From: Amphiscolops sp. MND2022
Lineage: Eukaryota
Assembly (NCBI GenBank): GCA_964187785.1
Contig: OZ076409.1
Location: 28,212,001-28,276,000 of the forward strand
Direction: 5' to 3'
DNA length: 64,000 nt
The notes beneath the pieces were generated by a model, which saw only the letters and a program-made list of their open reading frames with translations, did not search any database and was not told where the DNA came from. Shown piece by piece: positions 1-31,579 of the stretch; the stretch's first letter is position 1; every line of letters begins with the position of its first letter. A program made the position numbers and the translations under genes.

Positions 1-393
1 CGAATATCCCATTCGTGTTAATTCAAAAATTGTTCGTACACTTAACGAAGATCCTCGATACACCGTCTTACCGGCAAGATTTATAAACAACAGTTCACTC
101 TCAACTCAAAGAAAACAAAGAGAATTACGAAGATTACAAGAACCACAACTCACATTAAAATTTGAAGTAGAAGTCACATTCAACTCGTTAGGACCTCATC
201 CATTCTCTCTTTCAACAAGAGTAGCACACAAAACAACCCCATCACCATTCATAGTCACATCCATTTCTTACCTTTGTGACGCAGATTTACCTGAGATTAG
301 AACAGGACATATAAACTTTTTAAATCCCTACTCCGGACTCAATTATAGAACAATATTTTAATTACAGAACAAAATTTTAACTAAATTTTTACC

Positions 394-2967
394 ATGAATC
401 AAATCACCTTTACCCTATATTTAATATACATAATACAAATTGTTAAATACACATATATAATACACATAGTTCACTCTTTAGTTCACCCTTCAACTGTTCC
501 TAAAGTTGACACCACCAATTCTGAAAATCATATTTCAGACCAAGACCCTAACATTTTAAATTTGATGGTATCCCATTATGATTGTGCAAAACAAAACAAG
601 TTAAGACAATTCAGTTTATTAAATGTAGAACAATGTAAACAAGCACCTTCAGATATACAACACACAAAAACCCAAGCAACAGTTTATGTTAGAGCAAAAG
701 CTAAAAGAACAAAAGGCTTTAAATGCGAAGCATATATAAAGACTGAGAAAGTCTGGTGTTCACAAACATTCACATCTAGTAGACGATATGATCGTTTACA
801 ATGGGGACAGAACACATTAGAACTTCCAAAAATATTGGACCCTATTGAGTGCAAAAATATGATCAGATATCTAAACGCGACTGATAGCGAAGAACTAAAC
901 AACTACAATATACAAAGCTCTTTCTCATTGTTCGACGATAGTAACTATCAAAACACAATTGAACGAATTCAGACACCATTTAGAGTAAAAAAGCTAATTA
1001 CATGGCATATTGGAACCTTCGTATTCGATGAAAATTATCCCGACTGGATAGTTAATGTTACACAAAATACATACTCCAGATGTCGGTCAGACCGAGAACA
1101 TTTAATTACCCGACAAAGTTGGAAACTTAGAATTGTTAACACCGCAATAGATTATGACGATAAAAACAATCAATTAATACATGACGGACACATATTACCA
1201 TGCTACCATTCAGACGGATTTTGTAAACCAACGACCAAAACTCCTTATACATTAACATGGTGTGATGAAAAATTTTGCCTCATATTTCAACTTCAAGAAT
1301 TCATTGGTAGAATGACACGAATCAAGGATAGATACTGGATAGAAACCGATACCTTTATTGAAACTTCAAACATCACACAAAAACTTCAAACCGAAGGAAT
1401 ACAAGGAACAAGATATCCCAATGTGAAAACACCACAATCAAAAGTAAGCAATCCAAGCCTTTCTCGATTTGAAATATACCCAATTGCACAAACCTTCTGT
1501 GGAAAACCTGAACCATTATTCTCAACATAATATGAAGACATCTTTGTTACATACTTAGATGGTTTTGATATGAACACAGGATTACCAAAACCACACTCAA
1601 TAATTGACCAAACAATTAGTGGAAATATAAAATATGATGATTCAAATAAAAGGTATATATTCCCTGCATTGAATATATGAAACAATTTCGCCACTTTAGA
1701 TTATGATGCCCATATTAATACAAAAATTGATTTCACAATAAATCATGTATTTAAATCCATGACAGTACAAGAATTAAACACCCTTCAAACAATATGTGAA
1801 CTGGAAAGAACTCAATTGTTAACGATCTTAGCTATGTCAGTTAAAAATCCTCAATTAGCCGGTTTCCTTTTAACTGCAAATCGTAGTAACTTTCTCTAGG
1901 TTGAAGGAGCTACAGCATGGCTGTATGATTGCCCTCATTTTATATCACCATTATACAAGGCAGACAAATGCTTTGATAGAATTCCTATACACTACAGAGA
2001 AACGATAATGTATGTTGATCCTATAACAAGACAAACTTTTAACTATGCAACACCAATTGAATGTGGAAATAACCCACAAAATATAATAGAGTTAGATCCA
2101 GATTCTAACGACGGAGATTTTTATGTGTTAACACCAGAACCACTCAAACGAGAAGCACCACAAATATTTGAACCTACCCAAATTAAAACAACAATCACTC
2201 CCAATACATTTACCGCCCAAGATGCCGGTATATACTCAAATGCAGAATTAGATCAATTCTGGAATAGAGTATTATTTGCTAAACATTCAGACACAACTCT
2301 TCAATTACTTGGAAAATCATTAAGCTATGATTTTATCTCAATGCATAATGATAAACACTCATACTCAGGACATAATCCTTATAATCATTTAAGGATTGGA
2401 GTACATGACCACTTGTTAAAGCTTTTACCACTTTTTAATCCTGACTGGTTCAGTCAAGCTTTCATTAATTTCTTTGGATATCCATGTTATGTTTTAACAC
2501 AATGTGGAATTTATTTTTCAACATTTCTTTTCATTAGAGAAGTTTTAACATTTTTACTCAAATTCTACAGAACAACTAGTATAGAATATAATCTCCAAAG
2601 CAACATTTCCATTTTGAGTTCAATAGCCCATGGATTTTTTAATATAGTTAAATCGGAAATGGTAACCGACTTAAACAATACAGGAAAACGAAAACGGATA
2701 TATACTAAACACAAAATTACAAGTGAAAATGATAATATCCTCTTGCCGGAAAAAGAATTAAACAATAAACGAAGATACTCTGATAGTGGCTCCCCTTATT
2801 TACCTCCTAAATATTCCAGTAAGAATTCAACATTTCAATCACCGCAAAAGACACACCCAACTAATGTCAACGATATTAATTCTCAGGACTATGACCCAAT
2901 ATTATCGAATGTAATAGCTGTGCCGGAAAGTCCTGCTAAAGTCTTTATAAAATTCAATCCCTCCTAG
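394..2967 (+). pseudogene. env-like viral glycoprotein, chuvirus G-like (class III fusogen), three in-frame stops
   Basis: ORFs 394-1530 and 2008-2967 share one frame, which reads through with stops only at 1528 (TAA), 1678 (TGA) and 1897 (TAG). It has a hydrophobic N-terminus, HYDC, a Cys-rich ectodomain, ICELERTQLL..LAGFLL..EG..AWLYDCP..KCFDRIPI..YVDPITRQ..IEC, and a C-terminal hydrophobic/TM region (FFGYPCYVLTQCGIYFSTFLFI). Confidence 0.75.
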
Positions 2968-3407
2968 CTAAAAAGCAATAACTCAAAAAACAAATTAACC
3001 TCAGAAAAGTTCAAAAAATTATCAATAAAAATTCTTCTCAGTTTAACTTTCATTCAAACCCAAATTCTCACTCGGACCAGTCTCTCCTTTTCAACTCAAC
3101 AACATATTCACTTGCCCATCACAACTCAGCTCTCAACCAGAAGACTTCAACTGGATTTTCAGTCCATCTAAAAGACCGAAATTACAGAAGTTTCTATTCC
3201 TGGAATAGATGCCACTGTGATTGTTGATGTTTTCAACCCATCATTGATTCAGTATTCCCATATTGTAAGTACAATTTAAACTTCATTTTTAACAAACAAT
3301 TTAATGGATAGAAACGACATAACGAAATTTTTCCTCATTATTAGGAATAATATAATCAAACGTTATAATCATTATTTTAGCTCTACAAAAACACGCAAGT
3401 TTAAATA

Positions 3408-4626
3408 ATGGAATCCTTGCCTGAAATTGATGTAGTTAATTCTAACCCCTCTGAATTGCTTGCATCCCCTTTGAAAATAACTATTCAACAAAATGTTAAC
3501 GAAGATAACTCTTCCTCAAATTCTCAAGACCCCATAGAAACTATTCCTATTGAACAAGTAGATCATGTTAACGCAAGATCTCAAAAAAGAAAGTACCCAG
3601 ATATAACTGCAGACAAACCTTTTATGGAATCTGGCGCTTGCCCTCCTTTCATAAAACCCATTAAACAAGATGAAGATAGAGATTGTGAATTAGTTCCTAT
3701 TCTCTCGTCAAAACACTTCACCTTTCAATCTCAGTTAACCTCGTTATATATGATTCCAACAAAATACAAATTAATCATCAGAGAATTTAAAAATGATTAT
3801 CATACATCAATTGCTTCAAAATTGATCACCCCATATGATTGGTGGTTAAACAATAAAGTGAAAATTTTCTCACTCCAATACAAGTTTCTCAGACCATCTC
3901 CATATGATCTTCGAACCGAAGAAAATGATGCAAATTTTTTGCCATACCAAATCAAAAAGGCTCACCACATCAGAAGTTTCTTCAATATAAAGAGCCCGAT
4001 AATTACATATTCTTCAACTCCAAATATACATCGCCATTCATTTTCAACTCAGAATATTTAATAGATCATACCAAAACAAAAGGAAAACTTAGAAATTATG
4101 ACCCGCTGAAACAAAGTTTTCTCTTCCTTCCAAATGATAACCCAAAAAGACCAATCATCGTACCACAAGAATACCTCATTCTAAACGACGATTCGTTACT
4201 ACAAGAAGATATACCTCAACATATATCTGATCCTCTTCCTCCACTTCAACATATAGCCTCTCTCAACTGGCTTTGGGAGACTGTGAAAAATCTTATTTTC
4301 ACGCAATGACCAAAAAGGGATATTCGAATAATGAATTAATTTTCATTATTTCTCATCTGCTTTCACTTCTTACAAATGGAAATCACAAAGAACATAAAAA
4401 GGCAAAACAAGAATCGCCAAAGAAAACCAAAAATGATATTCCTCAACCACAAAGTTTTCGCCCAACAGACGAATTACAGAAATATACAGAAATCCTGAAT
4501 ATCATAAAACCGTATCATCATCCGAATCGAGATATTCTTATAACAATCGCTGAAATCGTAAATACCGTTGAACAAGCTCGAAGCATAATACAAAATATCG
4601 TATTTGATACGACAAGAATTAGCTAA
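3408..4626 (+). pseudogene. accessory ORF(s) of unknown function downstream of env, frameshifted
   Basis: ORF 3408-4061, an open segment ~4055-4309 in another frame (YLIDHTKTKGKLRNYDPLKQSFLFLP..PIIVPQEYL) and ORF 4273-4626 are contiguous. The ATG at 3408 overlaps an upstream TAA (TAATG). Confidence 0.5.
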
Positions 4627-5039
4627 TCAGCTTTGTGCATTCGCACATCTTTAGACGAATTCAACTACACTATTGAAAAAATGCACCGATCTTAACTGGT
4701 AATTATGGGATAATCACTTTAAATTGTTAACACTTATCACTTAATCTCTTAACAACCTGTCAAAATTATTTGAGTCTACACGCATATGCCTGCTATGCAC
4801 GATTATAATACATGCTTGATGTTAAAATACTCTTGTAAAATAAAATAACATAAAAAATTTCAAACACGACATAAAAATTTTCAACAAAATTTCTCAATTG
4901 ATCCTCCTTTTAACGGACCGATTTCAACTAATAAGTACTTATATGAAAGATATTTAAATACCCTTCAAAAGACTTCCAAAATACAGCAACTTAATTCTTA
5001 AAATTAAAAAGTTATAACATCACAAATTTCATTTAAAAA

Positions 5040-6700
5040 ATGTCAACTACGAAATTCTATTTTCAAAGGAAATTTATTGTAAACAAACTAATCTATTTTA
5101 GGTGAATATCGTCACAACTGTTTCTTCAGCATTCCTTCCTCCTCTCAAGCCATCCATTCAAGAAGATTTCCAAAGTATCTTCTACAACTTTCAACGAAAT
5201 TTTCCCATTCTTCAATATGACAACTATTCATTCTGGCGACATAGACTGCCCGATAGCTCCTTTTCTTTCAATTTCTTCAGCTCGATTGCGATCCTTGATC
5301 CTGAAGAAGCATTTAACGACATTAAATGCGCAGCTTAGAGCAGATAAAAAGGCAGACCCACATCTTACAAGGATGATATTGCTTAATATATTCCAAATAT
5401 TCCAAATAACAAGAATAAACTTCGACCAATACCTCCATATTCATAAACATCCTGACACTTATTCAACCCAACGAGACGCCACTACGCAAACAGAACATAC
5501 TACCATTAAGCCCAAACGTTTAGTACGAAATCTATCCAATAGAATGCGTTCTGAAATGGAAAAATAATGTCTAAATTCATATCGGCCTTCAGATGATAAC
5601 GATGATACTGACGAAGAACTTCAAAAAGACCCTCCAGAAGCACTTACAGATGATAATTATCCGCACAAAACATATACTTACGTTTCTTTCTAATATCAAC
5701 AGATGCCATCAACAGCACCCGTCCACGCCCATCTTCAAACCCAACATCTTCCACGATTGATCGTCGCAGATCAGCACCCATCTTCAACTTCATCGCCGCC
5801 CAACAGTTGCCCCATCTTCATTCATCTGCTGACCCATCTGCATCTATCTTCCAATCTTCAATCGTCAGCCATCCAATTCTCAGCCAAAGATGATCGATAA
5901 TTAATAAAAAAGAAAACTCAAAGAAAAAACATTGTGCATGATAACATTTAGAAACAGTTTCAAACTCATCTAATATTTAAAAGAATTCAAACTCATACCG
6001 AAAATATTCACAATTTAGTTATTAATTCAAATTTCATCCCCACCCATATTTATTTGCCCTAAAATCCTTTAATTTACACCCGTACCGATATTTATTTGCT
6101 TTATTTTTAAAGAATAATTAAAAATTATTATTATTTTTCGGTGCTATCCTATCCAAAAAGTTAACATATATTACCAACAAATCTTTTCAAATTTCAACTA
6201 AACCAGCTCAAAAATAGATCAAGCACATTGTTCAAATCCAATTCGAATAATGACAGACCCAAATTCTTGAAGTTTTCAACATTTGTTACATAACAAACCC
6301 GCCAAAGTTGATCACAACCTGATATCTTTTCAGACAGATTTCACACTCGATGAAAAAATTTTTTCTTCTCAACGATAATACTTCAATGACTCTTTGACCT
6401 TTAACTCGTATGATGTTTGCTCACGTTTGTTCAATGCGAAGTTCATTCAAAACTTCAACAGAAGCATAAAATTGAGCACCTACCAGTTCAAAAAACAAGC
6501 CGACGAAAGCATAGCGAAAAAGAACACTTTGACGCTTTTTGAACCGTAGTCGCACCTACGAGGTGTCACTCAAAAATTTGACAATTCAAGGTACACAAAT
6601 GAGTCGAACTTACACCACTCTTAAAAAAGACTTATGCCAATCATCCATCAAATGAAAAATGTTAACTAGCTGAAACGCTAAAAACATTTAAACAACATTT
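5040..6700 (+). pseudogene. further decayed accessory ORF remnants of the same element
   Basis: Overlapping short ORFs 5102-5338 and 5217-5567, an acidic segment (DDNDDTDEELQKDPP) near 5590-5690, and an interrupted frame from ATG ~6250. Same strand bias as the env region. Confidence 0.3.
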
Positions 6701-6762
6701 TTTCTTCATTTTAAATAATGATGCTACTTTAAAAGTTTATTTTATTTAAAAACCGGGATGGA

Positions 6763-7079
6763 TGTACTGACCTACATTAATAACCAATAGTATTTAGATG
6801 TTTATAGAATGTTCTAGAATGTACATTTATTTGTTATTAAATGACTGTAAATCTCTACTCCCTCAGAGAGAGAAAACTAATAATCAGTATTCAGTTGACT
6901 TCCTTTTCGTTCTGCTTCTAACACCTCGAACTAGTTGTAATAAAGTAAGCTAGCTAGCCTGTCTCTTAGCCGCTTTTAGTAGTCGTGAATAATACCATCC
7001 AAAGAAGTAACCAACCATTAAAAGCAGCACACTACCTTCTACCTATTGTAGACTGGTACTGAAACAGCGAAGTTTAACA
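6763..7079 (+). repeat. putative 3' LTR (~317 bp)
   Basis: Begins TGTACTGA right after the PPT-like tract, contains AATAAA at 6939-6944 and ends TTTAACA. The partner LTR is not in the window, so the 3' boundary is inferred. Confidence 0.6.
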
Positions 7080-8477
7080 AATATTTTCAGAAACGCCTAC
7101 AGTTAGCTCAATTCACTCAATTCAATTCCGCTGGTAATGAAGAATTTCACTGCAAAACGAGTCAAGAAAATTCTAAGAAACATTTTTGAAATCTACATAA
7201 TAGATAACAAGCAACTATTCAAACTCTTTTTCTAATTTCACAAAAGCTAAAGCCTTTTTGCGAAATTTGTGAACAAGGCTTTTGTTCACAACAATTGGTT
7301 CTGGGCAAAAGCTGAACTACCTGAAAATCTCCTCTTTTGTCCTTTTCTGAGAGATTATTTCAACGAGAGATTGCTATAATTGTTTCAAAGTAAGGATTTC
7401 TTAATAAATAAACTATTCTATTCTGTTGTGTTCTATCAATAATTTTTGAGGCGATCATTCGGTGTACAAGTTTTTGATCCTTCGTTTTCAGGTATTAAAA
7501 AACTAAGAGGGAAATACAAAATTTATTGACTTTGTATACGGTGTTCCCTATAGTGTGCACTGGAAAACTTAAACCGAACAAGCAAAACATCACATTAACA
7601 TAATGTCTCGAAACGTAACATGATTCTGAATTATGCTGTCAATCGAAAGATTAAAAATTGAAAGTATTAAACCTAAACCAAAACAGAACTTTCAAGCTAT
7701 CTGGTATTTTATGTGGTCTGAAATACAGAATCTTGAAAATGTTTTGGGTTGTGAAATTGTTTGCTAGCAAGTAATTAATTCAACGAGCACTCTCCGTTTA
7801 TAAATGCTCAAGTGTGATCACAGTAAATTAGGAAAACTATGATGAATTAGTATAGCAAGATTTTATACAGAGTGATGTAATCCAGAGTATCAAATGATCA
7901 CAACAAACGTATACTTGATAGCATTTGCTGTGATTTTTTCCAATGCGCCCCATGAGCAATTTAATATAACAACTTCGATGCTATAACCCTATGCTAAAAT
8001 GTACCCTTAAAAATTGATTAAACAATTGTTTCTCTCTAGCCACTACGCTACTTTGTTTCAAGCGTAGGCCAGGTTTGCCTTGAATTCCAGTGACCTAACC
8101 TTGGAGGGCGCATTCAGTTCTTTTTGAGAAGCTTTTCTCGAACCATTTTTGCTACTTCCTTGAGAAAAGGTAGGAGAAAGCTAGTTTAATGGTTGGTCTA
8201 GTTCTCATTGATAACTTCGACTTATAAAACCAAATAAATTAGTTAGTATAATATGAAAAATGCTTCCAGGATCTCCGTCATCAAAGAACGACTGGGGTTG
8301 GCTCGTGTGCGCTGGAACTTCTTCTTATATCTCAGAAGTACACACAGAGATGGATAACAGTTTCCAGGTTTGCCATTCTTCTATTAGACATCGAAACCCG
8401 TATCTGAAAATTCAGAGTATGAAAGATGTAAAAATGAATGTAGTCAAAACACATGAAAGTTTTTCGTCGCTCACTTC

Positions 8478-8571
8478 TGTTGTTTTGCTGGTTCCAGAGT
8501 GGTTGTTTCGCCACTCCTACTGTGCACAGTAGGAGTGGCGAAACAACCACTCTGGAACCAGCAAAACAACA
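8478..8571. repeat. perfect 94 bp palindrome (hairpin/foldback element)
   Basis: 47 bp arms are exact reverse complements around the centre TGTG|CACA with no spacer. Outer GTCGCT...AGCGAC extends the symmetry. Confidence 0.95.
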
Positions 8572-9837: not shown

Positions 9838-10144
9838 TGCGCAACTTTCAACTGGCGGTCAATGTAAAATATAGGATTGCAATTGCTATTTTGGACAATA
9901 ATATCAAAAAATATATATATTTTTTTGATATTATTGTCCAAAATAGCAATTGCAATCCTATATTTTACATTGACCGCCAGTTGAAAGTTGCGCATTAAGT
10001 TTTATGGCGGAGAAAATAATTTAAAAATTCACACTTGGAACAAACTAAGAATCGTATAAAAAGGCCTTATTCCAACGCAAATTTTCTCCGCCATAAAATC
10101 TAATGCGCAACTTTCAACTGGCGGTCAATGTAAAATATAGGATT
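9838..10144. repeat. compound palindrome: three copies of one unit in alternating orientation
   Basis: 9838-9994 is a near-perfect 157 bp palindrome (A6 versus T7 near the centre). Its right arm plus extension (~9955-10018) is inverted again at 10081-10144. Confidence 0.93.
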
Positions 10145-13392: not shown

Positions 13393-14112
13393 TGTAACGA
13401 TAAGCGCTGGCGCTTGAACCGCAACGTAGAATGGAGGAACTAGAACAGCGAATATAATCTGGGACCTAGATCTCCGCGGCCCTAGCTCATTTTCCCTCCG
13501 AAGAAGCCAGTCCCAAGGTGGGGGAACCGTCTTGTTGGAAACTCTCTGGCCTGGTCCTAGTCTGTAACTGCTAAAAGTAACGGGCATCTTGCATGTCTCA
13601 AGACCACTGCTCAATTAGCCTTTAAAAAGGGGGCTGAAAACAGGAGGATGTTGAGCCATAGTATTGGAGAATCTGATAGAATCGACATCAAAAAGGGGTA
13701 ACCATAGATGTAAATGGGCAGCTCTCGAGCATATCAATCTACTACAACAAGGAAAGCACAACAAGCACAACAATATCGGAAGTTTGAGTTTTTAGTAGGA
13801 GCGAATTGACCATGGCTTCCCAGCGCTAGCGCTCGTCACCGCACAGGACGCCGCAGGATCTTCAGGCGAGCATCTGGAACACCGGTTTCTGTTGCCTATG
13901 TAGTGTAAACGCCATAGACCAAAGATGGGCACTTCACCGTGTTCTAGGGACTGTTTTCTACGTCTTCTCTTCTCGTCGTCTCTCGCGGGGGCGATTTCTG
14001 ATTTCTGATCTGCTTTTTTGACAGGTCTTTCGTCTGGAGCATGTTTGAGTGCCACGTCAGATTTGAACGAATTTTTGCTTCGAAAATTTTGACATGGGCA
14101 GTTGCCGTTACA
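13393..14112 (-). repeat. 3' LTR (720 bp)
   Basis: Matches 31580-32299 except two substitutions seen by eye (GAAGAAGCC/GAAGGAGCC; GATAGAATC/GATAAAATC). Confidence 0.98.
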
Positions 14113-14121
14113 TCACTCCCC
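14113..14121 (-). promoter_or_regulatory. polypurine tract
   Basis: Minus strand GGGGAGTGA directly precedes the TGTAAC of the 3' LTR. Confidence 0.85.
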
Positions 14122-14883
14122 GGGCTTCTGGCTTGTCGTCCCTGGCAAGCGGCATCTGGCCTCGTCTGGAAACGGCATCGCTGAGACTGCTGGGGATCAT
14201 CATCCACACCACAGGGGACAAGGACGAGTCCTTGTTTTTCAGCAACTATTTTCGACAAATTTCGCTGTTTTTTTTCAAAGAAAATTTTACTGCCTAGTAT
14301 TTTTACAAAAAGTGCAAACGAGGTTTTAGCACCAGCTCGAGAGCTAAGGTTTTCAGTCGGTTAAAACTCGTTTGGGCAAGCAGTTTTCGCTAAAAATTCT
14401 TTTGCGACCAAGGTCAGCTAAAATTTCCTTTTCCGTGCAACTTGTCATTTACAGTTTTCGATCAATTTCGGACAACATAAAACTTCTTTTGGGAGGGCGC
14501 CGCTTCGGCTACTCCTTAGACAGTCGATAGAAGGTGCTTGAGCACCAAAACACAAAAAAAACGGCAAAAATCGTAACTAAAAGGCTAAGACTTTTTCTAG
14601 ATCATGGCAACTCAAAAACACCGCGAACGGTGCGCAACAGAAATAACAGTTTTTCTTTGGTAATAGATTCTTTTTTACTTTGTAGGCGAAGCAGCTGGGG
14701 CAGGTGCACTCTATTGACCGTACACCCAGCGCATTACTAACAGTACAATAACTAAGTAATAACTATGAACAAAAATTTGCACCATGTAAGGGTAGCACCG
14801 GCTAAAGCGATAAGTTTGAAGGCACAGTTTCGGTAGAGTTTAGAGTCTATAGGGAGCGCGAACGCTCCCATTGGCGGCAGGGT

Positions 14884-17800
14884 TTATTGGGCTGAGCTGC
14901 GTCGAGCTCGATTCTTTATGGCATCATCGGGAGTTCCTGGATTGCTGGCATCTTCCGACGCAATTGACGCTCTACGTTGAGCAGGAACCACAGTAACTAC
15001 TGTTTCCGAGTCTGACAGGTCCTCTGGGAGCGTTAAATCGGCGATTGGCTGCACCAGGATAGTGCTGGGGGTCAGTTCAGCGTCGTGTTCTCCGGTCTGG
15101 GGTTGCGATGACTGAGGACTGGCCTGTGTCGATGGTGGACTCACAGGCTCTGCCTGCAGAATATGAGTGGGCAAATCCAGAGTCACGGGCCGGTCGATGG
15201 GCTGACTTAGTGACATGGCCATTGTGGGTGCCAGCATGGTAGGCGCGAACGCCTGTTGTCTCTCGAGTTCAGCTCTACTCTCCACGGCCAAGGATATCCG
15301 CTTGGAGACCCAGCCAGGCTGACTCCAGAGCTCGCAAGCTCGCTTCCATTTGGGGAAGCTGGCAATTTTCAGCTCCAAACAATGTCCTTCCCACTCTGCG
15401 CGGGCTTCAGAGCCTAGCACAGAATTAATCTCATCGTGTTGGACGATGGACATATCCCCTGACATCGTCATCTTGGCTTGCGGTCGCCAGGCAGCTTTTC
15501 TTGGGAACGGAGTCACACGGCTCTGCAGGTTCCTCTGACGAGTCTGAGCTGCTCCTTCAATCCAGTTTGGGATTTGAGCCAATTCCATATACTGGATTTG
15601 TCGATTGAAGGCTTCAGGGGCGCGACCAACGGGTTTTGCCCTAGGCCATCCCAGTGGCTCCTTCCAGTAGTGATTTGGGAAAGTGATGCATTTGAAAGCG
15701 TACAGGGGATCTACGGGTGGACCAGCACTAATGCTGGCTCGGATCACCTTGCGTATGAACTCCTGCGACCAGGGGAATCTAAAGGGGACTCCATTCAGGC
15801 TGAGAGGTGCGGAGTACCAGTTGACTGGGCCGTATTCTCGTGGCAAAGGGCACGCTTTTCGTGTGCGGGCACGCAACAGACCCATCAAATTCTCTTCTAG
15901 TTGTTTCTCCGACTTCAAGGTGGTGTACCCGTGCGGCATCTCGCCACTCAATACAGCCTGCACGATTCGCTGATAGGTCAGTGGGGGCCGTCCTTGGAGA
16001 TAGGTGCAGAAGGAGACCATATGCACCTGTACTGTTCTCGCCAGTGGTTTGGTGGGATACCGGCACACACCGACCGCACCGAAGATTGGAGCCAGGACGG
16101 AAGCCATAACGGCCACGAAGTCCTCCACTTCGACCAGAGTCAAATCGGCGATTTGCTGGGGCATGGGGAATCCCGCCGTTTCCGCAGGGAGTTGACGCTC
16201 GGAATGGTGGAGGGGTTGCGATTGATCCACGCCTACGAACAAGCCAGAGGCGAACACTAGGGTGGAGTACAACCAATGTTGGAGGGACGCACGCATGCGT
16301 TCCAGCTGGGCGACATAATCTTGCTGGTCCTTGGAATTTAGGAGGTGGCCCCATCGAGTTAGGCTGCGTAGTTGTCCCTGCGCGAGGATCAGGTAGCTGT
16401 AGAAAGTGACTAGATCACTGGACACTACCAACTCGACTAACATAGCAAGGGGACCTGCCACAAACTTCGTCGGGCCCATTGCTAGCGCGAGCGCTAACAT
16501 CTCTCCTACAGTAGCTTCGCCGATGGTTTCCAACAATTTGTCGGTCTGCACATTGGTGAGCAAGTACTCAGAGGCTATTACGTCGATGTTCCAGCCTAGT
16601 CCGAGACTGGTACAAAAGGCTTCCAAGGGACAGTTAAGCTCTTGAGCTACCTCGGCCAGGGTCCTGTCCACGAATCTGGACTGATACCATTCGGCATACG
16701 TTATTCCGGCGGCATCTACTTCAGCCTTCAAGTTGGTCGCCTCTATAGCCACGACGTACCTCATGCCCACGGGCAACTTGACGGGTTCTATTCCCGCGGC
16801 AAACCGAATCTGGGGAATGGTCCTTTCGACCGTGCGTGTGGCAGGCCAGGTTTCAATTTCCTTCACGAGCTCTGCCAGCTCTGCTCGTACGGGAATTTCT
16901 TTGTCCTTCCGCACCAGCCAGTTGTATCGTCGGACGGCCTCTCGTTCACTCATGTTGGATGCTCGCATGACGCGATTCCCGTCCAAGTCGAAGGCCATTC
17001 GCCCCATACACATTCCATGATCGAACAGTATGGCGTCGTCGATAGTCAGTTGTGCATTTCCTGATCGTTCCACAGCGATTAGTACTCTTGACACGGCAGC
17101 AAAGAAGGCGGGGTATGACAATGCGTCGGGGCGTAGGTCTCCTCGATCAACTCGCAGATTTGGCGCGCAAATAGCAAACTCGATTCGGCGCGCTTTGCAT
17201 ACCTCAGACAGGATGTACACAAATTGCTGCAAGCTTCGTTGCCAATACATGAATCCCGGCGGGGATGCGAAGAGCGCGAGCGCTCCCAGACGACCCCGAA
17301 GGATCCCTGCTGCACGCTCCATTGCGTCTGCAACCACGTTCACTAAGGACGCCACACTCCCAGGTCTGCGGGTATCTGCCATGAGGGCATCCAGGTTGCG
17401 TAGCACCCCTTCACAAGCCATGTGGTCGATCAGATTTGTGAAGACTACACGTCGCGGGGGCGGCTCTCTTAGAGACCCTCTCAGGTTAGGGTCGTACATG
17501 ACCGCGACCATCTCGGCAACCTCAGCGAAGCGGGAGAGTGGCATTGTTAATACCAACACATCGGGCAGAAGGTTGTCGATGGGGAGATCACTCCTAAGTG
17601 TCGAGTCTACTGCCACACAATAGCGCGCACGCTGCAGGGCCGCTTTCAGAAGGGGCTTCATTGATTTGATGTTGCGAGCATAGCGGGCGTTGGCTTCCCA
17701 GGTTTCCCCTTCGTGCAACATGTACCTAGCAGGAAATTGCTCGGTGAGGTCATGCTGCAGGCGAGCCATATAATTGTTGGGTGTCGCGGGCAGTTGCTCT

Positions 17801-19164
17801 CGAGCACGCTGTTCCCAGGCTTGCTCACTCATGTCCGCATCACGGGCACGTAGCGACCGAGTTATCTGAGCCGCAATGGTGATTCTGCTCACTTCTTTCT
17901 GGTCGGCGTCAGACGGCGGTGCCCTCCTTCTGATCGCACACGTGTTCGGGTACAAACACTCTGCCGCCATCCAGATGCGTTTGCTATCGCCAGTCACCAC
18001 TGTGCCGGATACGTCATCGGACGGGGGAAGAAAGGCGGGAGGATTGTTCTCATCGATTGTCTCGGACACCTCCAAGGACATGTTGGCAGAGCCTGTGCCC
18101 GAGGGCACAGGACTCGTTTCAGGATTCGCCTCCACACTGCCGTAGCGGTTGATGGCCTCTTCCAGGGACATCTGAGGCGCGCCTACGCCTAGGTGGCCGA
18201 CGCGATATGGAGGCCTCACGACCACCACACTTTTCATCTGCGACTGGTGGGGTACATCTGCTCGCTTGTCCGGAGGGGGACGACTGGTCGGACTGTCGGT
18301 CACGGAATCATGGCGTGTAGCGACGATATTTTCCTCAGTAAGTCGCTTCCGGCCAGTTTCCTCACGGGGATAGATCATGGCGCTGGTGCTTGGTCCAGCC
18401 GTAGTTTCTGCTTCCATAGACACAGTTTCGGCTAGGGTGGTGGGTGGGGTGACGCAGCCCGAGGGCTGAGCGGCAGCTTGCAAGTAATGTGTCAATCCGG
18501 GAATCCTTTGCTCAACGGCACGAACGAAGTCAGAGGAGTTGGGGTAGTTGGCGACAGCCTGCAGGGCCACAATCACCGCTTGCTCGCTGGGACTCCGTCC
18601 AATCAGATTTAGATTAGGCACTGATGGCGGTTGGGACCCCGAGGGCTCCCGACTTGAGGCAGGTTGATTGGTAATGTTCTGCGTCGTCGTTGCCCGGGTT
18701 CCATATGGTGCCCCACAAGCAATCGAGCTAGAATGCGGCGTCGTCTGCACTGGATTTGGTGCCGGAATGGAAGGCAGCGATGGGACGTTGACGGGCATCA
18801 TACGCAGTGATGTTTCTTGTTCGAATCTGGTGCCCTGGCTGGGACCATGCACTGCGATTGATCTTTCGTCCAAGAACTGGTGAGTCAGGTCGTGCCCATC
18901 CCAGGCATTGTTGGTGCACGTCAAGGTGCGACGATAGCTTGCCACCTCCGTGGTGATTGACAAAGATGCATTTGGCAGCATTTGCATCGATTCAAGCTGG
19001 GTCAGTAGGGCGGCCACCCCAGCTACGGCTACTGGCGAAAGACCGTCCCGCAGCCTTTCTTCGACATATTGGGCCTGATTGACCCTCTGCGCTCGCGCAG
19101 ATTCCTGGGGCCTTGCACTATTAGACCCGGTTGCAGGCGCTGAATTGTTTGGGCAATGGGCCAT
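14884..19164 (-). CDS. ORF2 of the giant element, 1426 aa, with a degenerate SGNH/GDSL-hydrolase-like domain; function unknown
   Basis: Intact long ORF between pol and the PPT. Low-complexity N- and C-termini. Central YCVAVDSTLR..VLVLTMP..RRVVFTNLIDH..ALFASPPG..DLRPDALSYPAFF resembles SGNH blocks I, II, III and V. No signal peptide. Confidence 0.88.
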   Translation of the reverse strand: MAHCPNNSAPATGSNSARPQESARAQRVNQAQYVEERLRDGLSPVAVAGVAALLTQLESMQMLPNASLSITTEVASYRRTLTCTNNAWDGHDLTHQFLDERSIAVHGPSQGTRFEQETSLRMMPVNVPSLPSIPAPNPVQTTPHSSSIACGAPYGTRATTTQNITNQPASSREPSGSQPPSVPNLNLIGRSPSEQAVIVALQAVANYPNSSDFVRAVEQRIPGLTHYLQAAAQPSGCVTPPTTLAETVSMEAETTAGPSTSAMIYPREETGRKRLTEENIVATRHDSVTDSPTSRPPPDKRADVPHQSQMKSVVVVRPPYRVGHLGVGAPQMSLEEAINRYGSVEANPETSPVPSGTGSANMSLEVSETIDENNPPAFLPPSDDVSGTVVTGDSKRIWMAAECLYPNTCAIRRRAPPSDADQKEVSRITIAAQITRSLRARDADMSEQAWEQRAREQLPATPNNYMARLQHDLTEQFPARYMLHEGETWEANARYARNIKSMKPLLKAALQRARYCVAVDSTLRSDLPIDNLLPDVLVLTMPLSRFAEVAEMVAVMYDPNLRGSLREPPPRRVVFTNLIDHMACEGVLRNLDALMADTRRPGSVASLVNVVADAMERAAGILRGRLGALALFASPPGFMYWQRSLQQFVYILSEVCKARRIEFAICAPNLRVDRGDLRPDALSYPAFFAAVSRVLIAVERSGNAQLTIDDAILFDHGMCMGRMAFDLDGNRVMRASNMSEREAVRRYNWLVRKDKEIPVRAELAELVKEIETWPATRTVERTIPQIRFAAGIEPVKLPVGMRYVVAIEATNLKAEVDAAGITYAEWYQSRFVDRTLAEVAQELNCPLEAFCTSLGLGWNIDVIASEYLLTNVQTDKLLETIGEATVGEMLALALAMGPTKFVAGPLAMLVELVVSSDLVTFYSYLILAQGQLRSLTRWGHLLNSKDQQDYVAQLERMRASLQHWLYSTLVFASGLFVGVDQSQPLHHSERQLPAETAGFPMPQQIADLTLVEVEDFVAVMASVLAPIFGAVGVCRYPTKPLARTVQVHMVSFCTYLQGRPPLTYQRIVQAVLSGEMPHGYTTLKSEKQLEENLMGLLRARTRKACPLPREYGPVNWYSAPLSLNGVPFRFPWSQEFIRKVIRASISAGPPVDPLYAFKCITFPNHYWKEPLGWPRAKPVGRAPEAFNRQIQYMELAQIPNWIEGAAQTRQRNLQSRVTPFPRKAAWRPQAKMTMSGDMSIVQHDEINSVLGSEARAEWEGHCLELKIASFPKWKRACELWSQPGWVSKRISLAVESRAELERQQAFAPTMLAPTMAMSLSQPIDRPVTLDLPTHILQAEPVSPPSTQASPQSSQPQTGEHDAELTPSTILVQPIADLTLPEDLSDSETVVTVVPAQRRASIASEDASNPGTPDDAIKNRARRSSAQ

Positions 19165-19176
19165 TAATGCATAGGT

Positions 19177-19200
19177 CTAAAAAGGACCACTGTTAAACTC
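19177..19200 (-). promoter_or_regulatory. putative splice acceptor for ORF2
   Basis: Minus strand GAGTTTAACAGTGGTCCTTTTTAG|ACCTATGCATTAATG has a branch-like TTTAAC, a pyrimidine tract and AG. The ORF2 frame opens exactly after this AG. Confidence 0.55.
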
Positions 19201-19458
19201 ACAGGGACAAGTTCTCTCTGGAACGAGCCGTGAGTCGGTTCGTCCTTCAATTGCAGCCAGGCAACGCCGGCTCCATAAAGGGGCCACTACAAACTTAAAA
19301 TCTAACTCTAACTAACTAATGAACTAGAACAAAACCTTGAGTGAAGAACATGACAAATTAACATCTCGAGAGCATTTCAAGGCTCTTCCAAGGTTGTTAC
19401 AAAAACTGTTACAAGAACTGAGGGCAAAGGAAAAATGGGGACAACTAAAATGAAAAGG

Positions 19459-22400
19459 CTACTTCAGCCCTATAGTTAATATTGATACATATACGCGGCT
19501 ATGCAAAACCACGTGAATACCAGTACCCTCGAACATGCTCGTTAGAGTATGGTACAGGTTAACCAACGAGAAAGCCGGTCTCTTGGGATCCAGAATCGGT
19601 AGGTGGACCCGTGTGGATCCTTTATCTATCAGGCGCTGTGTCAAGTGCGTCATGCAACGCAAGTAGTCGTCTGTCAGCAGCGGTGCGCGCTGGTTAGCAC
19701 GGACTATCAACAGGTGAATACTTTGGTTGGGGTTGGGGTTCACATCGGGCGGGATAGTGAGAATCTCGCCCACTTTAGGTCGTAAGGCAAATACATCTTC
19801 CATGCCGCACTCCCGCAGCACATATCGCAGGGCGGCAGAGTTGGTCTTTAGGTCAGCAGGGCATGCTAACACTATGTCGCCCTCGGCCTGCAAGAAATCG
19901 GACTCATCGTAAGAGACGTGTTCGGCTGAGTTCGGATACAGGGCTCCCGGGTAAACAATCTCTCGTCCGGGGCCATTATCGGGGGGCAGACACACGCGAG
20001 GGGTACGCCCTTGGACTGCAGCCAGGTCTTGCCACACTGAGCGGGGCATCGCTCGATTGTCGCTGCCGGCCTTTACCCACGCATCTAAAGTTCCCAGGGC
20101 GGCTTTGGGGAACAAGGGGATCTCGAAAGTGTGAGTCCACTCATCTAATAGTCGAATTCTGGGATGGGTGGCGAAACATGTGATTATTAGTTCCAGCCAC
20201 CACGCGAACTTCATCTTGCCTCGGTACCAGTCTATGATATGGAAGCAAAGTATTAAGTCCACAGTGGTGAGGGTCCTCAGACTCTCCAGACAGGATAACA
20301 GATTCAACGGTTCCACCAGCGCCTCCACTCGTGGAGCTGTTACCAGCAGCCACCAGTGAGGAGCCGGGCTGTATACCCCTCCTGGTTCCACCTGGACTCC
20401 ATACTTGTCGCATAACAAGTCAGCAGTGATGCATCGGACCATCTGCACAGGTTCCCTTTCAAAATTGAATGGTCCAAACGCAATATTACTAGGCACGGGG
20501 GGCAACACCGTGGGCAGGGTAAACTCCAGGCCCTTTCCATCGCTAGTCCACTCCTTAAACCTAGGACAAGGGGCCTTCGCTACCCCAGGCAGTGACAACT
20601 TCTCCAGGATAGTGTCCACAGGGTAGTCTCCGGACCGCTCTACAGCTGAGTAGGTTTTTTCGGCCCGCACCGTGAGGCGGTATACCAAGTTTTCTCTCTC
20701 TTCCGGAGGAACTCCCCGGGCTCCAATGGGAACCCTCCGGTTCTCATTCACAGCAAATAAGCAGACACAATCTCGCAGCCCGCAGGTTCCACACTTGTAG
20801 CGCGGCTGTCGCTTACTCCTTAGTTGATACCTAAGAGCAGTTGCAGATGCTTCTGTTAGCGTCTCTGCAGTTCTGGGAGCTTCCGTTTCGGCCTGGATCG
20901 CAGTTTCAGTTTCAGCTTTTCTCGGTGTTTCTTTCTTCCTCGTTCTTGCCTTCGCTCGAATCAGCCGTTTCTTCTGTGCCTTAGGTGGTCTCCCCCTCCC
21001 CCTTTTAAAAGAAGGAGCGGTCCCCGCTCCTGGCGAGGTCTCGGGAGCATCAGGCAGATCGGGCTGAACGTCGCTGTCGCTGCTGGCAGATTTGAGGGGA
21101 ATCGGAGGGGCGGTCGGCCATATGGGATAGTTACTAAGAAAGTTGGTTAGCGAGGGATTCGTCAACAAGGATGCTGAGGTTCCTGGTAACGATGTCTCTT
21201 CTTCAGAGGATATCTGCGGAGACGGTGAGCGCACGCGCTCATGGTCAGAGAACAGTTGGGGTAGTACACGGGCAGGGGATATCGACTGATCCAATGTAGT
21301 CGGAGGAGCCGCAGGCTCCACCCTATCCTCGTCAACGGGATTAGGAGGTATTGGCAACATGGCATCGGATAGTTCGTCGTCTGTACCCGAGGTGGAATAG
21401 TCAAATTGCTGATAATGCGGGCGGGAGCCGCCTGCGCGAAGCTTCGTGCGTAGTCGAGTGTCCATCCAGTGACGTCGACGTGAGGGCAAAGATGCATCGG
21501 ACGCCTCTGAAAGTAGTTGTTCGGGTTTATACGACGAGAAAGACTGGTCGTCATCAACTACGTCGACGGAACGTTCAGGTTCGGGGTCCATGAGGACCAC
21601 CACCTCACCACTGTCCGAGTGTGCAGTAGCAAGTTCAAGTGGGCCACTGTGGTGCGGTTTGAGACGCTCAAAATGAACCTTTTGACCTGTGTCTAGTACA
21701 TAGACACGACCGTCCTGAAAAACTTGTACCACTTTGTGCGGGCCTCGCCAGGCACGCATCAATTTCGGGGAACCCTTTTGCGGTACGTAGCGGCAAAAAA
21801 CCCAGACGAGCTCGCCTACTTGGTAAGCTCGCGCTTGTATAGCACGGTCGTACTTTAATTTTTGACGCAATTGGGCTTGGTGCGTATTACGCCGTACCAG
21901 GTCATGTATTTCCTGTTGGCGAGCCAGTACATGATCGACATACGCCTCATGCGACTCGAATGATTTGGCAGCAAACTCGGGATACAAGAACGTGAGAGGG
22001 ATGGCCTTCTCTACGCCACGGGTCAGCATATAGGGTGAGAAGCCAGTGGTAGCGTGCCTCGTAGAGTTGTAGGCACCCATGACCTCATCAAGACATTGGT
22101 CCCAATCGCGCATACGGCGGGAACAAAAAACTCGCAGTAGGGTCAGCAGCGTCCGATTTTGGCGCTCGACCAAGCCTTGGGTTCTCGGATGGCTAGCTGT
22201 AGAGGTTACTTTGGTAACGTGGGCTGCTTTTAGGAATTCGTTGGACACCTCGGCAGTCAAATTAGGGGCATTGTCAGACTGCATCCTAGTGGGTGTGCCA
22301 TGACGGGCGAACCACTTTTGTAACAGCAACCGAGAGGTAGTCACAGCGTCGTAGTCATGATGACTACAGGGCACTGCTTCCGCGAACTTGGAGAAATGGT

Positions 22401-25400
22401 CAATTATGACCAAGATGCCAGTGTTATTACTGTCTGAGGGGCAGATTTTCAGATGATCATATTGAACCAATTCGTTGAAGTATCCGCTTTGGATGTTCTT
22501 TAGATGGAATCGGACGTCACCAGGCTTATCCCGCACTTGTTGACAGGTGAGGCATTGGCCAACGTAACGGCCCACGCTGCGCCGAATACCAGGCCATGTG
22601 TGACGTTCTTGAATCCTAGCCACCACTTTGGAGATACCTTGATGTCCCATGGCGTCATGCGCGCGGAATAAAATCTCATGCTGGTACAGTTGTGGCATGA
22701 CGATCATGCACGGACGTTCGTGCAGGGGACGTTGGTTGGGAGGGTATTGTACGCAAAGTACACCATTCTTGTTGATAAACAGGAGGGTTTTCTTCTGGCG
22801 GTAGTAGTTGCGTGCGAACTCACGCACGTTCTCGGGAAACACGTCGTGATCAATAGATTCGTTCAGCACCAACTTTTTGAGTGCTAGCACATGAACATCA
22901 CGGTTTTGGGCTAGAACCAAATCTTTGATACCATGCACGGTGTGAGCATGTTCGTGAAGTTCAGTGTTGATATCTTTAAGAGCCATAATTGAGTCGCGCA
23001 CACCCGAGGGAGTACCTTGCAACGCCACAGGATTCGCCCCGGCAATAGCATAGACGGTACGCGAGGGAACATTTACGGCATGCGTTGGCAATAGATAATC
23101 TTCGCGTGCTTCATCAGTCACATCAATCCAATCCTCAGGGTAGTCTGGATAGGCATCCTCGTGCGGTTGCAGAGCAAGGGCAGGCGGAGGTGGCAAAGGG
23201 GCTGCGAATGCTTTCGCTTGTCTGTCCCTCCTGCTCGCTCGTTTGGTGCGGCGAAGCACGCGTAGCAATTGGTCGGGAGCCTTAGGCTCCAAGTTCTGCA
23301 GGTGCGCAGGTAACTCGGGATGGTTCGGGATGACTCGACCCTGAAGGTCGAACCATGGGGCAACAGGTAGCTTATCAAATTCGTCAGCTGAAAGAAAGTT
23401 CCAGCGTTCGCCCGCAGCTGGCTGCTGTGCAAGCTGTTTTTCGCGGCATCGGTACTCGTTGGTTCGTTTGCTCAAGCCATCGGCGTTTCGATGTTGGGTC
23501 CTTGGGCGGTGTTCCACGCGAAAGTGATATTTCTCCAGGGTCATGATCCATCGGCCGATTAATGCTTGATCCGTGGAGTAGGTTTTCAACCAGGACAAAG
23601 CTTGGTTGTCCACCCGCAGGGTGAATTTTCGGGGACATAGATAGCTGTGGTTCTTCACTATGAAATAGTAAGCGGCGAACATTTCAAGTTTGGGGGCTCC
23701 GTATTTGGCTTGTGTGGTGGTGAGCTTCTTGCTACCGTAAACTATCGGTCTCAGGCGTCGTTCACCCGGAGGACCTTGCCACTGGTGCAGGATACCCGAA
23801 ATGGCGACAGCACTAGCGTCAGTGTCCAACACAAACTCTCCTTCGGAATCAGGCTGCGCGAGCGCAGTTGCCTCGATTAGGGCTTTTTTGATCTCATTGA
23901 ATGCGGTTTGTTGCTCAGGACCCCAGGCGAAGGTGGCATTCAGTCCAGTGACGGCGTGCAGGGGTGCAACCAGCTTAGCGTGCCAAGGAATGAATTCGCG
24001 ATAATAGTTGGCAAATCCAAGGAAACTCTGCATCTCCGTCTTGTTACGGGGAATTTCCCAATCACGCAACTTGACGACGGCTTTTGGGTCGGGCTTCACT
24101 CCTTCTGCGGACACCACTCGTCCCAAATACTTGATTTCCGATTTCATGAAATCGCATTTGGCCACGCGCATTTTGAAACCGGCTTCACGGAGACATTCAA
24201 AGACTTCACGTAGACGTACCATATGGTCTTCCACAGTCTCCGTGGCAATCACGATATCATCAATGTAGGCCATGACCATGCTGCCCTCACGATTGACAAT
24301 ATTCCTTAGCGCACGCGCTATTGACCGTTGAAACGTGGCAGATGCATTGCACATACCAAATGGCATTCGCCGCCACTCAAAAAGTCCTAATTCGCAAGCA
24401 AAAGCGGTTTTGTGGCGATCCGCTTTGCGCACGGGAATTTGCCAAAAGGCCCAAGCAAGGTCTATGCTGGTATAGATCTTTGCTTTGCCTAGCCGTGCCA
24501 GGCTTTCATCGATGCGGGGCAAGGGATAAGCATCCTTAATGGTTACCTCATTTAACGGGCGGAAGTCGCAGCAAAAGCGCAACTCCCCGTTTTTCTTTTT
24601 CACCATTACAATGCCGCTCGCCCAGGGGGACAGCGAGGGCTGTATCATTCCCAGAGCTAATAGGTTCCGTACCTCCTGATTGGCACGTTCGGCCTTCTCA
24701 GGGGACATCCGGCGAGCACCTTCGCGATGCGGTACAGCCCCTGGTTCCACCTCCACGGTGTGCTTAGAGATAGTGCACCGACCGATGTCTGCTTTGTGTT
24801 TCATGAACAGCTCATCAAATTCATCGAGGAGGTTACGGAGAGACTCGCAGGCGCTAGCGCCCCACAAATCCTTGACCGCCTTGAGCTGAGATTCCGGCCC
24901 AGGAATCGGAGCCATTAGCTCTGGGTCCGTTCGTTTGCGAATCTCGCGCTCCGATAGTCCTGCCTCGCTAGGGTCAGTAGAGGACAAAAACTCAAATTCG
25001 GAAGAAGAGGTTAACTCAGAAGCAGTGGATAGATTCACTTCACTATAAATTTTATGAACAAAATTTGCACGACTGTCGTCGGCGTCAGTTTTTGTGCGGG
25101 TTGTAGTGGGAGAGTCCAAACATTGAGGTACTGCTTGGTATACTACCGTTACGGGTACTACGGTGCCCAGTTGTACACCACACCGCATGCGTTGAGGGTT
25201 GCTGGTGAGATTTATCAGGCTCACAAAGAGTGTTCCTGTCTCACTGACAGTGGCCACGCTGTCCTCTAAAAAGACGACATTGTGCAACGTAGTGTCAGAC
25301 AAAGAGGCATTGAGCGCTACGCTTTGAAATATCAGCGGCTCTAGTGTGTTGGTGACGAGCTTGGCTCTAGCCACCGCTCGTTCAAAAGGTTGCAGGACCA

Positions 25401-28400
25401 AGTCACTGTCCAAAACGACTGGAGTAGCTATTGAAGTGTCACCTACCTGTGCGTGAGCATGATGCCACACAGGCTTCACTGGTGCTCGCACCACAATCTT
25501 CATAGATGTTAGATCCACTAACACCTGGTAGGAGCGAAGAAAGTTCCGGCCAAGTAGGAAGTCTTCCACACCCATTGCGTCATCTACCACCACAAAGTTC
25601 GTTTCAAGTTCGTATCCTCCCAGCTGGAAATGGATGTGTTCTGCGAGGCCGTAGGTTTTTATTGTCTTCCCGTTGGCTGCGTATAGGTCAACTTGGTAGG
25701 GTTTAAGTACCGTTCCAGTTCGAGCTGCCACTCTGTTGAAGGCGGAAAACGTCAGTATGGAGACGCCCGAGCCAGTGTCCACCAGCCCTCGCAGCGGAAT
25801 AGGTGCTGCATGAGGCACCACGAAAGAGACCACGAGCGACGCACGCTCATCTATACGCGCTTCGCCGGTGGGCTCCTGGTGATTGATGTTATAGCATTTG
25901 AGCTCCTGGGGACCCAGACAAATGCCAGTGGGAAATACATCCACCACCACACAGGCTTCGAATTTCATGTCCACTCCATCCATTGAAGCGCAGACTGGCA
26001 CTGGGGAATACGTTGTCAGAGTCGCAGACTCTCCCGGAGCGTACCATTCTTTCGGTCGAGGCAACTCGTTTCGTTTGTAGAGGATAGATAATTCGACCCA
26101 TAGCTTCGCCAGAGTTAGCGTCGGCCTATGTGTTTGCTCAGCTGCCAGCAACAGGTGAATGGAAATCAGCGTACGTCCTTGCGGATCGAACGTTGTGGGT
26201 TCCAAGCAGGTTTGAACTTGCTTAGCACCACAAGTGAATGTCATCGGAGTGTGGAACGCAGGCGGTTCCGCTGGATGTAGCATCAACACACGGTCATCTT
26301 CCAAAGGTACGGTGTGCGCGGCGATGCCAGCTGATTCGACCTCAGCCCACCGATTGTAGGCCAACTCTTCATTGGGTTTCGGCGCATGGGAGTGCTCTCC
26401 ACATTGCACTTCCGCCTGATCAAAAAGGCCACAGCTCGCGCATTGATAGATCCCTGGATGACCTTCAAGGATACCATCGGTCGTGTCTTCCGTGGTCACC
26501 TTCACGCCCTCTGGTTCGGAGGCAGTCATCGGTTTTCGAGCCTGGTCACGATTGGGGCACTCGCGAGCAAAATGTCCGTTTTGCCCACAGTGAAAACAAG
26601 CACCTACTGGCGCTCGGACGGGAGCTGGGACAGCCGGAGCTGGGACATTTTGGGGGGGCGCCGGAGGTGGCAAGACGCCCTGCGGCATAACCATCTTGTT
26701 CGGCGGTAGTGGTGCGAAAGGATGAGGTCTAGACCTCATGGCTAATCGGGGATCATAGGGTTGTTGAGGTTGGGTAGGCCTGGGACGATTGCGTTGCAGC
26801 TGACGTGTGGTGAATCGCAAGGACTCCACGGTAGGGGGTTCGGTAAGAAAAGTTTCCGAGGCGTATACTATAGCAAGTTCACGCCTCAACACTGGATCTC
26901 GCACACCTTCCATGAAGCGTTGCAAGATTTCATAGCGTTTCGTAGTGATACTTTCTTGCGGGAACCCTTGGCTCCTGAGACCCTCTAAAGCGTCTAAGTA
27001 CTGCATCCAGTCTTCTTTTTCTTGTTGGACGCGGCTTTGGAAAGTCTGCCGCACCTGCATGCGATTTCCTCCCGCGCCAAATCGACTAGATAGCAACTCG
27101 AACACCTTCTCGGGGGTGTCACGTTCAGACTCTGCCTTGTTGATGATGTAGTTGCGAGCCTCACCTTCGAGGTGACCGATAATACTCCAGGCCCGATCTT
27201 CGGCCGAGATTTTGGTTTGGGTTCTCTTTAAGTATCGCTGCATCACTAGGATCCAGCCATCAATAGACCCGTCCTTAGAGCCTCGATACACACTGGGTTT
27301 GGTCTGAGCCAGGTCACGTCCCGCAAGTAACGGTGCTAGTTCTTTGGACATTGCTTTGGAAATGGCGGCAGTGAACCTCAATTGCTCAGGAGAAATGACT
27401 TCAGCCTCTCCTTCTTTAGGCGCCACATCATCAGTGCCGTCGTCACTGCCATGCGTAGCTCGCACTGAGAGGTTCGTCACGTCTTCTTTCCTGCGAGTGC
27501 TGCTCGCGCAAGGAGCGCCCGAGGGCATCCCGTCCTCAGCTGGCCAGTCGGCGGTCAGATACATGGAGTCCGTTCCAGAAACCATGGTAGGGGCCGTCAC
27601 ATACGCAGCTCCATCAGTCTGGGACCCTAGTGTGGCCTTAGTACAGGATAAATCAACTTCGGTAGAAGTATCTAGATAGATAGGTGACATCGGGTCCACA
27701 CCTTGGTCTCGGGTGGCACTTCGAACTATGGAGGATGTCATTTGGCTCATCGACGAGGAGTCGTGGGGCCCTCTTACCTGCACCCGTGCAGGTTTGCGCT
27801 CCACAGCAGCCATGATGGGCACAGGATCCCTGGTTCGGGTTTCAGGCGTTGTCGACTTGGAGGTGCTGGGCTTCAATACGCTCGCCAACTCGGGTTTTGT
27901 TGCCTGACTCCGGTGCGATGATTCCGTGGCCTTCATTGAATCCGCGATCGGCACACCTTCAGTGGCACCAGCTTGTCGTGGGAGGGACCTTTCGCGCCTC
28001 ATGATGTTGATAGCATTGAGCACAGTGTGCATTTGGTTACTCAAATCATTGATCTGGGTTTCCACACGAAGTTCACGGGCCATCAGAAGGTCATTCATCT
28101 CACCCATCCTGTAGCCTAGTGCATCTACGCGAGCGCTCTGCGTGTTCTGCGCGGTTCGCAGTTGATCACTGACCTGCAGACCTTCTCGCATCGTTGTCTG
28201 CAATGTTCTCATATTTTCTGCGATGGCACGGTGTTGGTCATTGCATCCAGCACGAGTGCTAGCCAGTTCAGCTAAGGCACGTTGGGTCTCGGCTTGGGCT
28301 TCCAATATTGCTGCTTTGTACACCGAAGATCGTTGGGATGATGCCACTGAACCTGCCACGCTCCTCTTACGAGGCACCTCAACTTGACGTTCACCTACAT

Positions 28401-31564: not shown

Positions 31565-31579
31565 AAAAATGAGGTTCTA

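Follow-up and report, generated by a model that had tools for sequence, protein, structure and literature searches.

At the left edge of the 64,000-nucleotide stretch analysed here (hereafter, the window), 393 nucleotides from its start, lies a long and interrupted frame that resembles a viral envelope gene. The locus raises the question of which kind of element carried this env, and of whether the gene was acquired from a virus by this lineage separately or was inherited with the element. Judging from sequence comparisons, we consider it quite probable that the left edge of the window holds the 3' portion of one decayed copy of a high-copy Ty3/gypsy LTR retrotransposon whose env is of the gB type, that is, an "errantivirus" in the operational sense of a recent catalogue (Chary and Hayashi, eLife 2026; PMC13524379). 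The features on which the discussion is built are the following, all on the plus strand.

2..361, +: ORF X, its C-terminal 119 codons, lying between pol and env; an open frame rich in Ser, Pro and Thr
356..367, +: candidate splice-acceptor-like site, 26 nt upstream of the env ATG (motif picked after the sequence was seen)
394..2967, +: env, 857 codons and a terminal stop in a single frame
415..471, +: hydrophobic core of the predicted signal peptide (residues 8-26, Kyte-Doolittle peak 1.63)
2503..2559, +: predicted transmembrane segment (residues 704-722, Kyte-Doolittle peak 1.59; modelled as a long helix)
2803..2814, +: PPxY motif in the env cytoplasmic tail (residues 804-807)
3408..4695 (end approximate), +: ORF Y, about 430 codons, placed by similarity to P0069, with frameshifts and a stop in the window copy
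5217..5693, +: ORF Z, 158 codons with one internal stop in the window copy; cluster of 502 members
6748..6762, +: polypurine tract, 12 of 15 bases purine
6763..7101, +: 3' LTR, with a TGTA start at 6763 (TGTACT) and its 3' end TACA at 7101 or at about 7438

Reading frame and predicted fold of env

Retranslation of 394-2967 gives 857 codons, interrupted by stops at codons 379, 429 and 502, as the sequence-only reading of this DNA had it. The five remaining frames over the same interval carry 42-92 stops each, where about 58 per frame would be expected at the same composition, and the chance of finding three stops or fewer in the env frame is P ~1e-21; the frame is therefore real. The signal-like N-terminus and the transmembrane segment described in that reading correspond to the two hydropathy peaks listed above and, on hydropathy only, bound the ectodomain. 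The conserved cysteine pattern is likewise present, with a YDC motif at residues 62-64 and a CE..L..G..Y.C..C..DP.TR..C block at residues 468-557, in a product that counts 17 cysteines and seven N-glycosylation sequons. A furin site (R-x-K/R-R) is absent from the four env family proteins examined. This copy is dead, and full-length Env cannot be made from it.

All 10 family proteins compared carry the PPxY motif in their tail, whereas shuffled tails would be expected to give 0.68; the count was taken over related sequences that stand for four subfamilies at most. Among 23 distant relatives, the tail could be placed in ten and not in 13, and one of the ten carries the motif.

For the Pfam and structure comparisons, env was translated with X at the stops. 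The protein matches PF24664 (Monjiviricetes_fusion) at E 3.5e-24, with 85 bits for a cut-off of 27, and the same family is matched by all 41 aligned env relatives as well as by env in the protein atlas (score 0.95). The structure model of residues 57-756 is of middling quality (pLDDT 68, pTM 0.43). When it was compared with solved structures, all 35 PDB matches listed were herpesvirus gB (best E 5.5e-13), with whole-chain TM-scores of only 0.20-0.25, while neither a sequence nor a profile search of the PDB with env produced a meaningful match. VIA comparisons returned HSV-2 gB at Z 11.0 (rmsd 16.8, 399 aligned), gB domain IV at Z 8.5 (rmsd 3.7, 153 aligned) and Mokola virus G at Z 7.9 (rmsd 3.7, 119 aligned). 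In BFVD, which contains viral proteins only and in which a closer retroelement env would not be visible, chu-like, xinmo- and qin-related glycoproteins lead the named entries (E 7e-27 to 3e-24); the first ten hits share 12-16% identity with env, and herpes gB enters the ranking at rank 28 (E 1.9e-13). Altogether, the PF24664 match, the gB and chu-like fold matches and the atlas lead to the conclusion that env encodes a class III fusion glycoprotein of the chuvirus-G/gB type, and the earlier proposal of a chuvirus-G-like fusogen serving as the env of an LTR element is thus borne out.

Copies, relatives and origin of env

A protein search with env returned 72 matches among 3,117 candidates, 68 of them at 49-96% identity and four at 27-28%. 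Four sister env clusters hold 1,585, 1,758, 603 and 424 members (ENA records), more than 4,000 in total, record counts that overstate copy number, as the members include fragments and possibly several assemblies. Among the 15 members listed per cluster, 2, 3, 9 and 7, respectively, are full length; in the cluster of P0005, the nine full-length members are 97.7-99.7% alike (at the protein level only). The four subfamilies are 52-80% identical to each other, each has full-length members, and an open frame of 857-923 aa with signal, transmembrane segment and tail motif is kept across them. The env of the window is 94.5-95.0% identical to the two full-length members among the 15 listed in its own cluster. 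Given these close full-length kin, and full-length env across diverged subfamilies, the sequence comparisons identify the copy at 394-2967 as an insertion that has decayed, in a family that kept its env open as its subfamilies diverged. A natural record of 1,323 aa from the P0002 cluster, P0078, carries an in-frame tandem duplication of most of env, and P0423 shows a similar duplication within pol.

With a wider search at E <= 0.001, the number of representatives rose to 2,026; many were family fragments, and there were also long proteins 22-34% identical to env. In a FastTree tree of 38 rows, the ten env rows of the family form one branch (support 100) with a stem of 0.91 changes per column, placed inside a deep radiation of the 22-34% relatives; the tree carries long-branch warnings and unlabelled rows, so that depth can be read from it and the donor cannot. 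DNA-locus scans of viral and metagenome contigs with exact peptide patterns yielded nothing usable, which leaves room for viral relatives. The genome-contig scan gave one match, an env-type piece 40% identical (L001:212-700) on a 704-bp contig filed in a bacterial MAG, which is probably eukaryotic carry-over. Concerning sequencing runs, one had a 0.07 share, its contigs covering 14 of 30 bins, and none of those listed was an RNA run.

The sequence-only reading considered env as an independent capture. In that explanation, the gene would have been taken by this lineage separately from a chu-like or another negative-strand RNA virus, and would not descend from the ancient gB-type pool. The rank of the chu-like, xinmo- and qin-related glycoproteins in BFVD, far ahead of herpes gB, could be read in this sense, as could the single, well-supported branch with its long stem. 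Moreover, none of five family motifs occurs in the gB-type alignment file of PMC13524379, where a sixth matched one unrelated row, and several separate endogenisations of Jingchuvirales glycoproteins are reported in PMC10084718. Nevertheless, BFVD, being viral-only, is blind to a closer retroelement env, and the named viral glycoproteins are 12-16% identical to env, compared with 22-34% for the relatives in the deep radiation that surrounds the family. Furthermore, the order of the eight domain I-II cysteines agrees, by eye, with the Insecta_C1 rows of PMC13524379 and resembles, less clearly, the Platyhelminthes_C1a rows. That catalogue reports gB-type env in many phyla, argues for an ancient origin in Ty3/gypsy elements, and finds the chuvirus-like glycoprotein of mosquito BEL/Pao elements also beside gypsy pol, in 114 arthropod elements. 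In view of these data, a separate capture seems unlikely to us, and the data do not call for this part of the earlier reading.

It is rather unlikely, too, that env no longer serves for entry, the family spreading by intracellular retrotransposition or as non-autonomous passengers, with env and the accessory ORFs riding along or acting inside the cell. The scarcity of full-length env in the subfamily of the window copy (2 of 15 listed) and the several deletion derivatives (P0325, P0068, P0069) would fit such a history. Against it stand the subfamilies that, at 52-80% identity, keep the open 857-923 aa frame with signal, transmembrane segment and tail motif, as well as the nearly identical full-length members of the P0005 cluster. 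An env kept open across subfamilies requires selection on the protein during replication.

LTR, linked pol and accessory frames

The sequence-only reading also located env upstream of a polypurine tract and an LTR. Both exist downstream of env; they are not adjacent to it, as the tract begins 3.8 kb past the env stop and the intervening DNA is partly coding. Contigs of run X1 branch exactly at 6763, overlapping by 30 bases, and have a loose end behind 7436, one contig diverging at about 7438; a branch at 6763 is what one would expect if a single LTR 5' edge is reached from differing upstream sequences. Within the 64,000 nucleotides, there is no second copy of the 6763 LTR, no 5' LTR and no pol of the env element, the window starting 393 nt before env.

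The connection with pol is made through other copies. P0325 is a natural deletion product in which an integrase tail (SH3_Tf2-1 and Integrase_p58_C, both below the Pfam cut-off) is joined to ORF X, the ORF X part being 97% identical to window 2-358, and P0068 in turn joins ORF X to env. A search with the integrase part of P0325 found eight pol proteins among 391 candidates. P0427, 94% identical to that part, has Retrotrans_gag and rve domains; the other linked pol proteins have RVT_1, RT_RNaseH and rve, with SH3_Tf2-1 in three. The full gag-pol members, which belong to sister families and are 56-64% identical to the P0325 integrase part, are single ORFs of 2637-2691 aa. The best PDB sequence match of the linked gag-pol is Ty3 Gag-Pol (E 4e-48), a match that discriminates weakly, since the PDB may hold no Pao reverse transcriptase. 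Peptidase_A17, DUF1759 and DUF5641 are the Pfam families specific to Pao. None of them was detected at E <= 0.01 in the eight linked pol proteins, nor at E <= 1 in the two full gag-pol proteins, all of these being relatives of the window locus. A Ty3/gypsy-type gag-pol is thus carried at the level of the family, by way of the chimeric ORF P0325 and the related gag-pol proteins, and as gypsy domains and no Pao ones occur in both, the element is most likely Ty3/gypsy.

A BEL/Pao element had been suggested by the parallel with insects, and the mosquito element Anakin (PMC7642597) does hold, as described there, a chuvirus-like class III glycoprotein inside its LTRs; but Anakin has a Pao pol, and even with the pol of the window locus lying beyond the window edge, the integrase tail joined to ORF X and the gypsy-type domains of all eight related pol proteins, with no Pao-specific family, make this assignment highly improbable. 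A non-retroviral endogenous chuvirus element was rejected as well, env being 12-16% identical to viral glycoproteins and standing among shared element ORFs with a polypurine tract and an LTR.

The frames flanking env are shared by many copies. ORF X, which is likely separate from pol, has homologs in 103 of 304 candidates (73-100% identical) and belongs to the cluster of P0328, with 488 members, of which 12 of the 15 listed are 370-371 aa long; in other copies its length is 370-500 aa, with longer forms of up to 504 aa. ORF Y was recognised through P0069, a deletion copy of a sister family that joins env to ORF Y: three successive pieces of the window copy match its uninterrupted 322-aa C-terminal part at 55%, 56% and 28% identity, the last at E 1e-7. 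In the cluster of ORF Z, 10 of the 15 listed members have 158 aa and are 90-94% identical to the window. Selection on ORF Z would be less certain than on ORF Y, because ORF Z is seen in close copies only. No Pfam family was found for ORF X, Y or Z. Considered as a captured viral matrix protein or phosphoprotein, ORF X gave a model of pLDDT 56, no BFVD match at E <= 0.001 and a best VIA Z of 4.9, values that speak neither for nor against the idea; the best score of ORF Y in the protein atlas (0.84) is inside the chance range. Two further stretches inside the element, at 6250-6670 and 2968-3280 on the plus strand, look like decayed ORFs, with few stops.

Acceptor-like sites of the form TT[TA][CT]AG precede the ATGs of env, ORF Y and ORF Z by 26, 27 and 115 nt, respectively. 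They are found at three of four candidate ORF starts (none at 6250), compared with 7 of 110 ATGs in 1-6762. As the motif was chosen after the sequence had been seen, these candidate sites are a lead to splicing.

Proposed life cycle, known relatives and neighbouring elements

The complete element would be arranged as LTR, a single gag-pol ORF of about 2,600-2,700 aa, ORF X, env, ORF Y, ORF Z, polypurine tract and LTR, and its full length would probably reach 16 kb or more. Spliced subgenomic RNAs would serve for the expression of env and of the downstream ORFs. What is established for class III fusogens and retroviral late domains suggests how Env could then act: it would enter the ER, trimerise without furin cleavage and become anchored in the membrane of budding Gag particles, where the PPxY of its tail may recruit Nedd4-type ligases and ESCRT, and it would fuse membranes through the domain I fusion loops, probably at low pH. 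Drosophila errantiviruses pass between host cells and into the germline, and by analogy the particles of the present family might do the same. In its discussion of entry, PMC13524379 gives the mechanism of gB-type elements as unknown and leaves open how they are triggered without gD or gH/gL.

A more elaborate version of this scheme can be formulated, which we hold to be tentative and unlikely to be right in full. The family would constitute a "complex" enveloped Ty3/gypsy lineage, with env, ORF Y and ORF Z each on its own spliced RNA and with the orphan ORFs serving, in the manner of complex retroviruses, as an entry partner or in RNA export or the suppression of silencing. A late domain in the Env tail would drive its budding, few known enveloped retroelements would be as amplified, its hosts would be an animal group that the survey of PMC13524379 does not cover, and its class III env would come from a separate capture, the donor being a negative-strand RNA virus not yet sampled.

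A gB-type env on a Ty3/gypsy element is already known and in itself no longer surprising. Indeed, 1,512 env-carrying Ty3/gypsy elements have been catalogued (PMC13524379), and the present family resembles the gB-type errantiviruses described there in its Ty3/gypsy pol, its separate downstream env with a class III gB-like fold, its signal peptide and transmembrane segment, the absence of a furin site and its many near-identical copies. Beyond the usual layout are the three accessory ORFs, the very long single gag-pol, the scale of amplification and the conserved PPxY. Unlike the elements of the catalogue, as far as their description there goes, the family has a 370-500 aa ORF between pol and env, 3.8 kb with at least two ORFs after env, and a gag-pol that is a single ORF of about 2,650 aa. 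It amounts to thousands of records, whereas the catalogued elements have from one to hundreds of intact copies, two measures that differ. According to the procedure given in PMC13524379, the first filter admitted a pol-env gap of up to 1 kb and a region of up to 10 kb, later manual steps reaching 3-5 kb downstream; this first size filter likely misses an element of the present layout.

Among viruses, the glycoproteins of Jingchuvirales, Xinmoviridae and the qin-related group share with env the PF24664 family, the cysteine block and the best BFVD folds; they differ from it by an identity of 12-16%, and the present env has a longer tail, with PPxY. No match to an N or L gene was found among the window ORFs scanned. 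Among LTR elements, additional ORFs, whether placed between pol and env or behind env, are described as occasional captures (PMC6431247, PMC5408684). The planarian Burro, as presented in PMC6431247, is likewise a giant gypsy element with thousands of copies and mononegavirus-like env homology, but its env lies in frame inside the polyprotein, while that of the present family is separate. The plant Ogre, in the same source, is another LTR element with extra ORFs; in the present family env is separate and is flanked by three ORFs, none of them with a Pfam match. The bdelloid ORF3 types reported in PMC5408684 are recognisable enzymes, in contrast to ORFs X, Y and Z. Relative to Anakin, the present family differs by its Ty3/gypsy-type pol. 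A literature search with a coverage that did not extend to subscription journals and Repbase found no description of the present family.

It is the accessory genes that could matter. Shared beside env, they are candidate partners for the triggering of a gB-type Env without gD or gH/gL. In addition, the large size of the family and its young uninterrupted members would make selection on env and on the accessory genes measurable from sequence. The family size also suggests that a class of long elements with env escapes surveys that are limited by length.

The window contains other elements. A second, unrelated Ty3/gypsy element of 18.9 kb occupies 13393-32299 on the minus strand, with LTRs of about 720 bp that are 99.7% identical; no matching target-site duplication was seen flanking it. 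Its gag-pol frame (19459-29040, minus strand) is open from stop to stop over 3,193 codons, and its second ORF (14884-19164, minus strand), of 1,426 aa and with no Pfam match, belongs to a cluster of 581 members, 7 of the 15 listed being full length; this ORF is a large orphan gene on a young element. A degraded third gypsy pol, with RT, RNase H and integrase, is present at 59647-64000 on the minus strand and includes an 815-bp duplication that is 99.9% identical. On the same strand, 37849-38671 and 49166-50358 hold a gypsy RT-RNase H remnant and LINE-type reverse transcriptase-like frames, the latter identified by eye. Finally, the palindromes at 8478-8571 and 9838-9994, perfect or nearly so, have arms of 47 and 74 nt and would be either foldback elements or assembly artefacts.
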